From a virus, in the IMG/VR virus record IMGVR_UViG_3300019763_000001, positions 1-64,000 of that record: DNA of 64,000 nt; one strand, given 5' to 3'. Shown here in pieces: positions 38,002-43,617 of the stretch. Below the pieces are notes generated by a model that was not told where the DNA came from, did not search any database, and saw nothing but the letters and a program-made list of their open reading frames with translations. The number at the start of each line of letters is the position of its first letter. The stretch's first letter is position 1. A program made the translations under genes and the position numbers.

Positions 38002-38710
38002 TTATGATGTACGAATCATAGCAATATAGAAGTATGCACCTGTATCAGCAACGCTTAGCTTCATGATACCTTTAGCTGAAATAGATACCTTAACATCATG
38101 ATCACTCCCTGCAAGTTGTGTAGCAGCTTTGAATAATGTTGTATTAAACTTATACTCATATGTTTCTGAGCACTCAGATAATTCAACGTTGTATTCAGGT
38201 GCCGTATCAATTTTAGGGTTATATGCAATCATAGACTGAGTTGTTCCATCGGATACAATCTTCATGACTTCTAGACCCATCTGACCGGATGCTTTGAAGA
38301 ATCCTTGAAACTGCTCATTAGTTAGTTCGAATTCAACATCATAAGATGGAACATTGATTTCACGCACCTCAGAAACAAATTCTAAGCTATCGAAATATAG
38401 TTTTGTCTTTGTCTTTGTTTCGTCGGATACGATATGCATAAACTTATCACCACCATCAAAAACAAACTTAGCTCCGCGCATTGTCGATAGAGATAAAATA
38501 CCTATAAGCTTCTGCAAATCAAAGATTACAAAATCTTGCGGAAAGTCAATATCCACATTAGCGTACCCGAAGATGCTATTACCTTTTTGAGCCGATGTAC
38601 GTAGCTCTTTTCCTTCTAGAAAGCGAATTCTAGCTATTAACTGTATTGAATGACTTAAGTGTGTTTAAAAGTTTATTCGTGACAGTAATTTCATATACTT
38701 GCGCTGTCAT
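38002..38710 (-). CDS. gp45: sliding clamp; recoded at TAGA 38632-38629 (joined product 235 aa)
   Basis: LKSFNTVNS-x-IRF aligns by eye with T4 gp45 LKNFATINSGIML; FPQDFVIFDLQKLIGILSL; adjacent to gp44. Confidence 0.9.
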
Positions 38711-38733
38711 ATTCATTTCTCCGTATTGTTTGT

Positions 38734-39207
38734 TTAGTTGTGCGTATCATTACAAGCTTTTTTGGTTATGTCAAACTCTTTAGGCCATACCGCTTTAACG
38801 ACATCTTCCGTTAAACCTTCTGGAACATTACCCATGATTTTATCATAGTATAAGTCGGCATTTTCTTTGCTTGACATATCCATAAGCATGTTAAATCGTG
38901 TAATCTTTCTAACATCATTATGCAAAGATTGATCACTGCATGTCATTAGATAGATGTACTGAACATTCTGACCCGAACTCGATAAAAACTCAAATACAGG
39001 TGGATGTGTTAAGCTTTCAATATATTCTCTGATAGCATTGAAAGTGTATATCTCTTGAGCATGAAAAAGCAAGCAAATATTCCTAAGTTCATCTATATTA
39101 GCATACTGCTTAAGAAATTCGATTCTATTTTCTTCACTTTCAAAGTTTCTAAGCTTTGAGATTATAGTGCCTATAGTACCAGTTTGTCTACCAGCTGTTC
39201 TTAGCAT
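38734..39207 (-). CDS. hypothetical protein
   Basis: Operon-packed ORF. Confidence 0.7.
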   Translation of the reverse strand: MLRTAGRQTGTIGTIISKLRNFESEENRIEFLKQYANIDELRNICLLFHAQEIYTFNAIREYIESLTHPPVFEFLSSSGQNVQYIYLMTCSDQSLHNDVRKITRFNMLMDMSSKENADLYYDKIMGNVPEGLTEDVVKAVWPKEFDITKKACNDTHN

Positions 39208-39774
39208 TTCACTTCTCCATTATCAATTTTATCTTTTAGAATTTTTAACATAGCGAATCCATCAACCATATCCTCAATAGGGTGGGCGTACATATCATCA
39301 TTACCGATATACTCATTTAGATTGCAGTCTGTTGTATCTATAAAGTGATCGACCATTTCATTCTTTTTAGCATTACCTTTACCGCTAAATTCCTTTTTGA
39401 TGTGATTGGGAGCATATACAACAAATCTAATATTCATTATATCCATGTACTGCTTCAATACTGATGCATTTTCACACATTTGAATCAAAACGGAACCTTT
39501 CATAGCATAACCTTCAAGTAACGCTAATTGAACTGCATCTTGCTTTAGAACACTAGCGGCCCAATCTGCTGTCATTCTAAAACGTTCCTCTTGTGTTTTA
39601 TATGTCTTTTCAGCTAACGAAACATCTATGTTATCTGAAAATTTACCACACCATTTCTTTACACTGTACCTTGCATAGAATTTACAGTTTTCCGGTTTAA
39701 GTTCACCATCTTTACTAATTCCACGTTACAATGGCTGGACAGCCCAATGAATAATCAATACCTGCAAGTATCAT
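39201..39774 (-). CDS. RuvC-like Holliday junction resolvase; recoded at TAGT 39717-39714 (joined product 190 aa)
   Basis: AGIDYSLGCPAI in the leader; LEGYAM, APNHIKKEFSGKGNAKK, DMVDGF downstream. Confidence 0.88.
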
Positions 39775-39915
39775 TTAATCACCCTCGCCTTCAATTTTTT
39801 CACCACAAATCGGACAAAATAATTCAGTAGGTGTGTCTTCAACACCATTCAGAATCAATGTTTGATCTGTACCGCAATGATCACACTCAAACTCAATTAT
39901 AACATTATTTGACAT
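39775..39915 (-). CDS. small zinc-ribbon protein
   Basis: CDHCG ... CPICG. Confidence 0.65.
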   Translation of the reverse strand: MSNNVIIEFECDHCGTDQTLILNGVEDTPTELFCPICGEKIEGEGD

Positions 39916-40188: not shown

Positions 40189-41293
40189 TCAAAAATCAAA
40201 ATCTAAATCTTCATTTTCATCTATATTGTTATCAACCATATTTAGCTGATAATTGTTGTTAGATTGCTCTTGATTCGCATTCTGTTGTGAGTCTATGTCT
40301 AACCAACTCTTAATCCACGTAATTGGATTCGTTTCGACTACTTCAAAATCAAATTGCGTGTTGTTGACTATAGTATACACTGGGCGAGAGCAAAATAATA
40401 CCCAATCATTCAATACGTGTTCAGTTAAGCCAGGAATTGACCGCCCTTCACTAAACAGATACTTATTCCACGATAGTTCTTGCCTAACGATAGAATCCAA
40501 TATTTCTTTACATTCTTTCGCGTTTCGTTTAAATCCTTCTCTAAACTCTGGATCATCTCGTAACAATATCTTGATGATATGCCCATCACCTTTTGCATGT
40601 AATTGCTCATCTGTTGCAATTTTTTGAACATACTGAGCAATGCCAACAGCAATATTTTGTTCAGCAATTCCAAACGTAACCGCAAAACTAGCCATAAACT
40701 CAATAGCTTCTAACGCTATTAACGCAGTTAGAAATTGGACAATAATATCAACAATTTCTTCACGAGAAACGCTTTCTTTATCTAGCGTGTACATTGCACC
40801 AATTTTTTGCGTTTTATCGAATACTTCAGTTACTTTAGATGATCTATCAATGATATTTTGATTGTTCATAATTTCATTGAAAATATCATTTGGATTTACG
40901 ATACACTGTCTAATTATCTCTGAATAAGTTAGTGTATGTAAAACTTCAATCTCAGACTGCTTTACTAACCATGCCCATAATTCACTATTAGTTACAAACG
41001 GTGCAAGTAAAGGAGCAATTGCTTTACATGCTACACTATCCAATTCCCATTGGTATGATAGTGTTTTAACCATCGTATCATAATTAGATCGACTAGCTGT
41101 TGCTAGATCAGTTCGAGATTTTGCTAGATCAATTTCAGTTTCCATCCAGTCAATTTCTTTTTGCTTTTTATAGCATTTGAAAAGTTCTGGATATTTTGTA
41201 TTGATTCTAGTCGTATAGTCCCATTTCTTGACCTAAGAATAATGGATAATCAGCTGTCTTCCATGCAGTGTTATTAGTATTAAATACGGCCAT
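40189..41293 (-). CDS. nrdB: class Ia ribonucleotide reductase beta subunit; recoded at TAGA 41209-41206 (joined product 367 aa)
   Basis: LFLG in the leader; EVLHTLTYS, LEAIEFMASF, DEQLH motifs. Confidence 0.92.
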
Positions 41294-41310
41294 TTATTTC
41301 CTCCATTAAA

Positions 41311-41338
41311 TGTGAGCTTGGTTTTCGTCAAGCTCACA
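41311..41338. other. 10-bp stem hairpin between nrdA and nrdB
   Basis: TGTGAGCTTG/CAAGCTCACA. Confidence 0.7.
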
Positions 41339-41348
41339 CATACATCAA

Positions 41349-43617
41349 TTAAATTTTACAACCACCACCGCTGCAACTGTCGTCGTCTTCCTCTACATCC
41401 GTACCGTCATCGTTAGTGATATCGTTAGTCTTACTGTTTATATAGTAACAGCTTTTTAGGCCATAGTGTATATAAGCTGCAAGCTCTGTTAATAGTTCTT
41501 TTGTTGTTAATCTTCCACGTTTTGTGTAATCAACGTATTCATCAGCTGAGATACCCTGTCCGTGGAACTTCTGCATTATAGCATAACATTGGATCATATC
41601 AATAGTTGGAATATTCCATGCAAGCTCATAGTAAGGAGCAATCTCTGGATCATCAGCCCCAGGTGCGACAAACGTATTGATCACATCACCAGATTTCTTC
41701 TTAACAACAAGAGATCGGATAGGGTAAGGTCCGTTTGTTGTATAGCTTGATTGTGATGATGTCTCTGCCGGTGGAGTCGCTTCAAGTACAGAGTTTCTTA
41801 TGCCTCCATTCTCGATGATTTCTTGTCTTAGAGATTCCCAATCATATTCAAGCGTAAACTGAGCAATATTATCAACATTTCTATTGTATGTATCAATAGG
41901 TAACCACCCTTCTGGATACTTAGTTTTATGCATCCATTCTGCATTACCCTTCTCTTTACCTAAACGCAGTGATGCTTTATGAAGAAAGTATGAGTGCATT
42001 TCAGCATGTCTATGAATCAATTGCTTACCTTCTACACTTGAATACTTAAGCTTATTGCTCGCTAACAGATATGCAATGTTAGTGTAGCCGATACCAACAG
42101 AACGCCTCGCTTTAACTTTTTGTGCTAGAGTTTGCCAGCGATATCCCATTAGATCTATAGTGTTATCAACAATCAATAGCGTGTAATAGGCAACATCTTC
42201 ATACTCATCAGGAGACACACGACCAGCAACAATACACGCTAAGAAGCATAATGCGATTTCCCCTTGTGATTCAGTTCCATCTCGTTTGTATAGATCATAA
42301 TTGTCAATATACTCTTGTGTTGGCAAATTTATCTCCGCGCAAAGGTTCGATAGATAAATTGGATCCTTAAATGGAGTATGTCTATTGGCTTCTATTGGAT
42401 TCCAAAAATATTTTCGCCCTGTTTCATACCGCTGAGTCATATATTCAATAGCTAATGATCTAGCATTGATGAACGTTTTTGGAATACTAGCATCAGCGGC
42501 AACTTGATCATACAGATTATTAAACTGCTGTTCATCACCAGTATAAAGGGAGTCCCATAACTCTCTAGCGTCTTTATATGACACTAACATCCAAACATCA
42601 TTCTTTTTAACCTTCTCGATCAACAAGGGGGGAATACAAACTCCATAGTCCATGAACTGAATACGCTTTTCATCTGGAGTTCTAATATCCTTAAGTTTCA
42701 GCAACGTCTCAATCTCTGGATCTAAGACTGTATAGTACATTGTAGCTGATCCACCGCGAGAATGTTGTTTATTAGCTTTAACTGCCGTAGAGAAATGTCG
42801 ATAGTAAGGAAGCTTCCCTTGATGAACAATTTTGTTGCCTTTTACACCTTCTCCAGCAGAACGTGTAAATAGCGCTCCACCTATACCAGCTTGATCTGTT
42901 GTCATATCATAAGCAGCAGATGTTGCGACATGAATAGAATCTGCTGTATCGCCACCTCTAATAACACAACAAGAAGCATATCTATCAAAAGATGTTCTTA
43001 GTGCATTCATTGAAGGTGTAGGTAGGTTCATCTTCAAGTCACTTAGATATGTGTATGCTTTTTCAACATCTTGCATCCTACGGTCTTTAGGTTGATTTTG
43101 CATAGATGCTAAAGCAATACCCATGAACACGATCTGCGGAGTTTCAAAGAATATGCCAGTCTCTTTGTTGTTAATCGCATATTTTTTAGTGATTTGATTC
43201 AATGTTATGTAGTTGTATGTAAAGTCTTTGTTATGCTGAATAATTTTATCAACAAAATCAAACTCTTCTTTAGAGTAAGGAAGTTCGTTCCAATGGCCTT
43301 TTTCTACCATACTGTTATAGTAATCGAAGAATTTAGGTTTTTTGTAGAAATCACCAAACACTGTTTTATAGATTATGCCGGTTAGAATACGTCCAGCCAT
43401 CTCCATATGCTTCTCATCTTCCATAGCAATGCATTGGTTGATTAAAGCATATTGAATATCAATAGAATGTGCTTCATCTGGAAGTGTTCGTAAAGCGCGT
43501 AGAACTATAGTTCTACCACTCAACGTTATTATTAGCTGCCCATTCACCCAATCGGTTTAGTTTTTCAGGCATAAAGTCTTCTTTTTGCCCATTATTTTTA
43601 ATAACTGTTTTAATCAT
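41349..43617 (-). CDS. nrdA: class Ia ribonucleotide reductase alpha subunit; recoded at TAGA 43515-43512 (joined product 755 aa)
   Basis: ATP-cone start MIKTVIKNNGQKEDFMPEKL; ASCC, SNLCAEI, C-terminal CSGGGCKI. Confidence 0.95.

Follow-up and report, generated by a model that had tools for sequence, protein, structure and literature searches.

Four-base junctions in genes of the phage

The DNA analysed here is the first 64 kb (positions 1 to 64,000, hereafter the window) of the IMG/VR virus record IMGVR_UViG_3300019763_000001, the 155,493-bp genome, with direct terminal repeats, of an uncultured T4-like phage. Four genes on the minus strand of this stretch, encoding the gp45 sliding clamp, a RuvC-like resolvase, NrdB and NrdA, are interrupted in one and the same way. 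Reading from the start codon, 19–34 open codons lead to an in-frame TAG, and the remainder of a well-conserved protein resumes four bases past the T of that TAG. Read directly from the DNA, each junction thus regains its frame exactly one base on (+1). The junction letters are GAG TGG TAGA ACT ATA in nrdA, TAC GAC TAGA ATC AAT in nrdB, AAT AGC TAGA ATT CGC in gp45 and TGG AAT TAGT AAA GAT in the RuvC-like gene. An earlier reading of the sequence (the original prediction) had proposed that the four-base unit stands for Ser. The peptide contexts that it quoted, VEW-x-TIVL for NrdA, LYD-x-IN for NrdB, VNS-x-I for gp45 and SIRDL-x-NHF for an A1-like protein, are all correct, as is its count of eight TAGA sites in the window, alongside which there are two TAGT sites.

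Across the whole genome we find about 19 sites of this form, comprising 15 TAGA, three TAGT, one TAGG and no TAGC. Recoded genes of the window include, among others, those for the A1-like protein, the primase, a deoxynucleoside monophosphate (dNMP) kinase and the late sigma factor gp55, in addition to the four named above (Table 1); the genome-wide list also holds a Dda-like helicase, uvsX (two sites), the gp41 helicase and the gp43 DNA polymerase, together with a PHROG 4756 protein of unknown function, a small virion gene and a few small open reading frames (ORFs). Beyond all 19 sites the 0 frame shuts in 0–19 codons and the −1 frame in 1–33, whereas the +1 frame stays open up to the gene end at 19 of 19, such that reading the site as a single step restores a full-length protein. 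A plain reassignment of TAG as a triplet, of the kind known as code 15, fails on the same observation, that the 0 frame closes so soon after every TAG. Both pieces of each broken gene show coding-like codon use, and PHROG matches span the junctions of the dNMP kinase, the RuvC-like protein and one small virion protein. That a +1 step at UAGN is needed here, and that it is used, we regard as very probable.

Table 1. Positions of the junctions in the window, of the transfer RNA (tRNA) genes and candidate RNA, and of TAG terminators. Positions are numbered from the first base of the record.
Feature	Position	Strand	Gene and remarks
TAGA junction, gp45 sliding clamp	38629..38632	-	gene 38002-38716, codon 29; +1 frame open 208 codons, 0 frame shuts after 16
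TAGT junction, RuvC-like resolvase	39714..39717	-	gene 39201-39774, codon 20; PHROG 159 match, residues 1-182, crosses it
TAGA junction, nrdB	41206..41209	-	gene 40189-41293, codon 29
TAGA junction, nrdA ATP-cone	43512..43515	-	gene 41349-43617, codon 35
TAGT junction, A1-like 'DNA transfer protein'	18773..18776	-	gene 17207-18857, codon 28; PHROG 1745
TAGA junction, primase zinc-finger region	19764..19767	-	gene 18858-19926, codon 54
TAGA junction, dNMP kinase	21397..21400	-	gene 20902-21529, codon 44; PHROG 139 match, residues 1-194, crosses it
TAGA junction, gp55 late sigma	22167..22170	-	gene 21531-22200, codon 11; PHROG 234 match starts past junction
TAGA site, small unknown gene	54913..54916	-	ambiguous; both pieces coding-like in codon use
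TAGA site, small unknown gene	61892..61895	-	83 amino acids joined; no homologues found
tRNA-like RNA	137805-137899	+	95 nucleotides; 73.8 kb past window end
tRNA-Met(CAT)	52-129 (window) and 155422-155493 (genome)		in direct terminal repeat, hence at both record ends
tRNA-Arg(UCU)	154433-154510		canonical
TAG terminators	87666, 92060, 93493 (+), 54747 and 1951 (-), 510 (+)		

One of the two sites in small genes calls for caution: at 54913-54916 the +1 frame has an ATG one codon past the site, which may be an ordinary boundary of two small genes. Most junction genes that are small or divergent had no Pfam match, and no alignable homologue sequence was found at the junctions of gp55, the PHROG 4756 gene and the small ORFs. 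In public annotation the interrupted genes are represented only by N-terminally cut calls, namely gp45 of 184 amino acids (38002-38556), NrdA of 732 (41349-43547), NrdB of 318 (40189-41145), the A1-like protein of 492 and Dda of 425; gene callers of the standard kind are unable to bridge the junctions.

The genome was assembled from a metagenome, and such breaks could in principle stem from errors in sequencing or assembly, or from the decay of genes in a degenerate phage. A Logan contig built from the single run SRR7051568 is identical (100%) to genome positions 28002-48556; this 20.5-kb contig, made with a different assembler and recorded in two samples, includes the gp45, RuvC-like, nrdB and nrdA sites. 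The stretch is present in full in two microbial-mat runs and, at low depth, in one more; no RNA run containing it was listed. Contigs from the three runs show no differences, the ones listed not bridging the four sites and those of the low-depth run being partial. Both complete runs may come from the very sample behind the record and hence would not be fully independent. Nevertheless, the identical per-run assembly makes an assembler slip unlikely. Gene decay is likewise at odds with the pattern, since all 19 breaks share one form (TAG plus one base, with a +1 rejoin) and 18 of them fall no further than codon 55 of the gene, where random placement would put 4.8. With coding-like codon use on both sides and family matches crossing the junctions, an artefact or a decayed genome is scarcely credible, and the observation of four-base junctions is confirmed.

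The messenger RNA (mRNA) around the sites offers little else to direct a frame change. Nothing beyond TAG plus A is conserved, the information content being at most 0.5 bit at every position outside TAG+N over the 19 sites, and 14 different codons precede the TAG. Such heterogeneity of the preceding codon, together with the lack of a conserved context, points to an event defined by a tRNA and not by a slippery site. Frameshifts of +1 at stop codons are well known from prfB and Euplotes, and their precedent lends some plausibility to a tRNA-independent shift at a slow UAG, in which the T is skipped and Arg is inserted at TAGA and TAGG and Ser at TAGT, possibly with help from the tRNA-Arg(UCU) that the phage encodes. 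Against this, the P-site codons present (TGG, GAC, AGC, AAT, TTA and others) are unable to re-pair in the +1 frame, and neither a Shine-Dalgarno-like (SD-like) element nor any other conserved stimulator accompanies the sites. A programmed +1 shift of the prfB, Ty or Euplotes type was rejected for the same lack of a conserved slippery codon or stimulatory context across the 19 sites. The residues found in homologues, considered below, also bear on the skipping model.

Residues of homologous proteins at the junctions

To read the residue that homologues carry at each junction, seed alignments were made from Pseudomonas phage pf16 and two complete IMG/VR genomes, and were extended with up to 80 loci per family drawn from IMG/VR; metagenomic proteins were added for the A1-like, Dda-like and dNMP kinase genes. 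Within the collections searched, the phage is rather isolated. Its closest GenBank relative is pf16, with 38% identity in gp43, and its nrd relatives in IMG/VR reach about 50% identity. Scans with single proteins returned two distant IMG/VR loci for NrdA, none for gp43 and, in the JGI metagenomes, none for gp41, and the sole match of a word-based search with gp45 was the phage's own truncated ORF. All homologues aligned stay in one frame across the junction positions and have neither TAG nor another stop there.

The original prediction had expected Ser or a small residue in several of these columns, and this expectation was borne out. Ser is the majority residue in the gp45 column (S62 G13 N4 T3 A1, n=83), in nrdA (S67 F12 A8 G4 T1, n=92), in nrdB (S50 T31 Y12, n=95) and, most strikingly, at the first site of UvsX, where 80 of 81 homologues carry it; in gp43 it holds a plurality (S20 G10 T9 L6 N4 D2, n=51). 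For gp45 the prediction had named Gly in T4 and often Ser elsewhere, which matches what is found: the site is Gly in both T4 and RB69, with Ser the commonest residue overall. The nearest relatives of nrdA read V(S/C)W-S-(D/E)(I/V)V across the junction, and relatives of nrdB at 47–50% identity read GL(Y/H)D-S/T-IN. At the RuvC-like junction the closest three homologues have Thr and one more relative has Ser, the others showing Ile, Met or a gap. The A1-like column, within the helix-turn-helix motif S.R.I-x, is A14 S5 R1 G1 K1 P1.

Such columns are rare in the same proteins. Among the six best-sampled ones, 98 of 3060 ordinary columns (3.2%) have a Ser majority, compared with four of their seven junction columns, a fifth having a Ser plurality. 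The corresponding binomial probability is 3.4e-5 for four of seven and 2.9e-4 when all eleven sites assessed at that point are counted. We then asked which single residue, placed at all 12 alignable sites, best accounts for the homologues under an empirical substitution model fitted to the columns of these alignments that lie outside the junctions. The best is Ser, followed at a distance of 1.8 log-likelihood units by Ala, 4.0 by Thr, 5.7 by Gly and 10.1 by Leu; Tyr (14.5) and Arg (17.9) trail further behind.

These data speak directly to the skipping model introduced above. Pooled over the 12 junction columns, 865 homologue residues include 298 Ser and seven Arg. The proposed check by alignment did not return the result that would have told against Ser, namely heterogeneous or Arg columns. 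With Arg at TAGA and TAGG and Ser at TAGT, skipping of the T falls 15.6 units behind Ser at every site, or about e^15.6 less likely. Nor does this phage tend to carry Arg where its relatives carry Ser: at the 98 ordinary Ser-majority columns it has Ser 51 times and Arg once. Two points can be set in favour of skipping, namely the canonical tRNA-Arg(UCU) of the phage and the Lys plurality, Arg-like in character, of the gp41 column at the TAGG site. Relatives that lack such sites, however, also carry tRNA-Arg, as their commonest tRNA (18 of 52). Taken together, we consider the skipping model improbable.

Several columns lend Ser little or no support and should be set beside those that favour it. 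The dNMP kinase column is mixed (A35 L13 T12 V11 E10 S10 G9 ... R5, n=132), that of the Dda-like helicase is variable (E, A, Q, K, L and others, with S3 and R1), the gp41 column is K32 L10 T9 E9 I8 and others, and the second UvsX site shows D22 N13. In the primase, which the original prediction had itself singled out as a counter-example, the column is aromatic (Y63 F20 A4, n=87), with Tyr or Phe in 83 of 87; its Ala residues come from four loci only, whose context KTRF-A-IYS is the nearest to this phage's KTRF-x-IYS. As judged from the alignments, some five to seven sites carry most of the Ser signal, and four or five columns say little either way; by this evidence on its own, Ser is not told apart from Ala or Thr.

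The original prediction had also mapped TAGA and TAGT onto the Ser codons TCA and TCT by a swap of C for AG. This part finds no support: relatives mix TCN and AGY codons at these columns; the AGY share of Ser codons at homologous positions is 8% in gp45 and 72% in nrdB. An origin by insertion of a T before AGY is unsupported on the same ground.

The reading of the four-base unit as Ser is thus supported, and we judge the inserted residue likely to be Ser.

A candidate decoder RNA

A tRNA-like RNA that could read these sites is encoded far downstream of the window (Table 1), between ORFs and on the same strand as its neighbours uvsX, gp41 and gp43. Folded without constraints, both its minimum-energy and its centroid structures are five-arm cloverleaves with an anticodon loop of 8 nucleotides (nt), A-U-U-C-U-A-A-A, closed by a G-C pair. 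The UCUA in this loop is the exact complement of UAGA and pairs with the site at 15 of 19 junctions; we estimate the chance that a random 8-nt loop has the form U-UCUA-purine at about 1 in 2000. The predicted acceptor stem has 8 bp, including one U-G pair, the D stem has 6 bp with a GGG loop, the variable arm has 9 bp, and an unpaired U (U73) precedes an encoded CCA. With 55% G+C against 33% in its flanks, the RNA stands out as an intergenic G+C island, of which the genome has only two more, tRNA-Met and tRNA-Arg, the only tRNAs that ARAGORN and Rfam recognize (tRNA-Met(CAT) and canonical tRNA-Arg(UCU)). A 15-nt inverted repeat surrounds the RNA (genome 137785-137920), AAGAAAGGGTTTTGG ... CCAAAACCCTTTCTT; it would lengthen the acceptor helix and may be a stem used in processing or an element akin to a terminator.

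Other properties of the RNA count against its being a tRNA. Its T arm is irregular. The 16 nt that separate the variable arm from the acceptor strand form a stem of 5 bp, containing a G-A mismatch and capped by a loop of 4–6 nt; neither a clean 4-bp stem with a 7-nt loop nor a clean 8/4 or 9/3 branch can be drawn. The fold z-score is only −2. ARAGORN makes no call at this position, the Rfam model RF00005 finds tRNA-Met and tRNA-Arg in the genome and leaves the RNA at 137.8 kb unscored, and Rfam families, among them tRNA and tRNA-Sec, give no match in the 300-nt region at E<=10. No homologue emerged either: the 18-mer of the anticodon arm has no exact match in IMG/VR, and a single-sequence covariance model, run over 1.36 Mb of DNA from related phages, recovered nothing but its own sequence, so the fold lacks support from covariation.

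No class-II synthetase core domain (PF00587) was detected in the genome, and charging of the RNA would therefore fall to a host enzyme. Seryl-tRNA synthetase ignores the anticodon, which is why engineers have chosen a serine scaffold for UCUA. A global alignment with class-II tRNAs gave slightly better scores to tRNA-Ser than to tRNA-Leu and tRNA-Tyr, a result from six sequences only that is too weak to count. More specific is the likeness to allo-tRNAs, for which Mukai et al. (PMC5389517) treat a long variable arm combined with G73 or U73 as Ser identity; the same authors report (8/4) tRNA-Ser from phages. As modelled, the architecture of the 137.8-kb RNA fits a Ser-type, allo-tRNA-like molecule. 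We hold it quite probable that the UCUA RNA is the decoder.

The same RNA and the same four-base decoding might instead deliver another residue, such as Ala, Thr, Gly, Leu or Tyr, or a mixture arising from mischarging. The small deficits of Ala and Thr in the likelihood comparison leave room for this, as do the Tyr and Phe of the primase column and the Tyr of 12 nrdB homologues. Bacterial Tyr and Leu tRNAs, moreover, have long variable arms too, as is generally known. A G3:U70 pair is an identity element for Ala, and A73 is required by bacterial leucyl- and tyrosyl-tRNA synthetases. The acceptor stem of the phage RNA has no G3:U70, the pair there being U3-A, and it carries U73 in place of A73. 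Leu and Tyr are also those residues with larger deficits, and the near-invariant Ser at the first UvsX site tells against another assignment. A further consideration detracts from Ser: in Escherichia coli, U73 allo-tRNAs accepted Ala besides Ser (PMC5389517). Weighing both sides, insertion of a residue other than Ser is unlikely, though it retains an appreciable chance. The claim of the original prediction that a Ser-charged adaptor acts here, and not a passive slip, is supported: the 8-nt-loop UCUA RNA is a concrete candidate, and Ser does better than skipping, with the reservation that the columns by themselves leave Ser and Ala unseparated.

Removal or bypass of the extra base at the RNA level, by editing or some other correction, is a very remote prospect. 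The sites contain no homopolymer run on which a polymerase could slip, and a mechanism of this kind leaves unexplained why TAG is present at every site, why the fourth base is never C and why the genome encodes an RNA with UCUA in an 8-nt loop.

Placement of the sites

The sites are found mostly in genes for replication, recombination, nucleotide metabolism and late sigma function, almost always one per gene, and large blocks of structural genes are devoid of them apart from one small virion gene. This placement, along with the concentration near gene starts, is probably not neutral drift and instead suggests a gate that ties translation of the replication genes to the phage tRNA. Failure at such a gate would be cheap, yielding abortive peptides of 11–54 residues. 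The second TAGA of uvsX (genome 133036) lies at codon 328 of 378; a stop there would remove the last 50 residues of UvsX, and two isoforms are conceivable.

As a terminator, TAG is rare, ending about six of 226 likely genes compared with 130 for TAA and 87 for TGA. The fourth base is T, C or G at five of the six TAG terminators, and at four of the six a stop in the +1 frame follows 0–10 codons on; one of them reads TAGT TAA. This context looks like protection from four-base reading at true gene ends.

One further observation concerns NrdA in a relative. In a related IMG/VR contig, the NrdA match is split by about 960 bases (4379-5337) between two well-aligned halves, an interruption that may be an intein or a mobile insertion.

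Comparison with known decoding systems

Quadruplet decoders made in the laboratory provide close parallels. The engineered qtRNA-Ser-TAGA (DeBenedictis et al. 2021/2022, PMC8481270, PMC9094753) shares with the phage RNA the UAGA codon, the UCUA anticodon and the 8-nt loop, as well as a serine scaffold and a G-C pair closing the loop, and the best engineered serine UCUA variant has A32 and A37, as in the phage RNA loop (PMC9094753). When tRNAs were evolved on UAGN codons, UCUA turned up in every winner whichever UAGN had been selected, and loops of 7 nt yielded nothing (Wang et al. 2016, PMC4764823). The evolved decoders cross-read UAGA, UAGG and UAGU and none was good on UAGC, a reading range that the site spectrum of the phage (A 15, T 3, G 1, C 0) matches (PMC4764823). 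In contrast to the phage RNA, these decoders are laboratory constructs on canonical 7/5 scaffolds and read reporter genes; the phage case would involve a natural gene, an irregular allo-tRNA-like scaffold and about 19 native genes, many of them essential, and is known from sequence alone.

The classical suppressors sufD (tRNA-Gly), sufJ and sufA6/SufB2 (tRNA-Pro) resemble the phage RNA in having an extra base in the anticodon loop and in giving a +1 shift at a four-base site (PMC9094753). They differ in that they are mutations of ordinary tRNAs, act on sense-codon quadruplets and lie outside normal wild-type expression, whereas the phage quadruplet begins with a stop codon and the genome appears to be built around it. 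Allo-tRNAs and (8/4) tRNA-Ser share the 8-bp acceptor stem, the long D stem with a small loop, the longer anticodon stem, the long variable arm and U73, but their anticodon loops are of 7 nt and read triplets, and quadruplets or frameshifts are unmentioned in the report describing them (PMC5389517). Conversely, the phage RNA departs from them in its T arm and in having no sequence homologue that we could find. The long acceptor stem, long D stem with small loop and long variable arm are also features of tRNA-Sec.

Phages with code 15, in which TAG specifies Gln, likewise have in-frame TAG codons, a phage tRNA proposed as the decoder and a proposed gating role (Borges et al., bioRxiv 10.1101/2021.08.26.457843; Peters et al. 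2022, PMC9523058). There TAG is a triplet read without frame change and recoding occurs mainly in late and lysis genes, unlike the present phage, where genes for replication and nucleotide metabolism each carry one site near the 5′ end. The programmed shifts of prfB and Euplotes (at AAA-UAR in the latter) are similar in that a stop codon occupies the A site and the +1 step yields a functional product. Both, however, require a slippery codon in the P site, to which prfB adds an SD-like element upstream, and no such context is conserved in the phage; the Arg that a shift of this type predicts at TAGA is contradicted by the homologue columns.

Discussion

The findings are best accommodated by a model in which UAG and the base that follows are read together as one four-base serine codon, likely through the phage RNA at 137805-137899, and on balance we believe this reading to be right. 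UAGA (15 sites), UAGU (three) and UAGG (one) would each be decoded as a single Ser, with the ribosome moving one extra base and so making the full-length protein. The phage UCUA RNA would act as the reader of the four-base codon, and the host seryl-tRNA synthetase, indifferent to the anticodon and guided by the long variable arm, would charge it. The sequence data establish the form of the junctions, the necessity of a +1 step, the Ser bias of the homologue columns and the predicted fold and anticodon of the RNA. The scheme further presumes that the RNA is expressed, carries Ser and is used by the ribosome, and that four-base reading holds its own against release factor 1.

Four-base codons are familiar from suppressor mutants of the laboratory and from synthetic biology. 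We found no published natural phage or cellular system of this kind in the open literature, and one study states that none is known (PMC9094753). Our assessment leans, with some reserve, towards a genuine natural codon, UAGA (with UAGU and UAGG) for Ser, that has its own UCUA tRNA and on which the replication programme of the phage would depend through that tRNA.

The assignment of a residue is of interest in itself, for 'a frameshift' then becomes 'a codon with a meaning' and the claim can be checked by mass spectrometry at named peptides. If true, nature would possess in the phage RNA an equivalent of the engineered UCUA quadruplet tRNA for serine, and evolution would have arrived at the engineers' own solution of a serine scaffold, a UCUA anticodon and a UAGA codon. 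Together with its mRNAs, it would also offer a natural set for studying four-base ribosome steps under competition from release factor. For phages of this kind in general, the reading would mean that gene callers silently truncate or split their essential genes.

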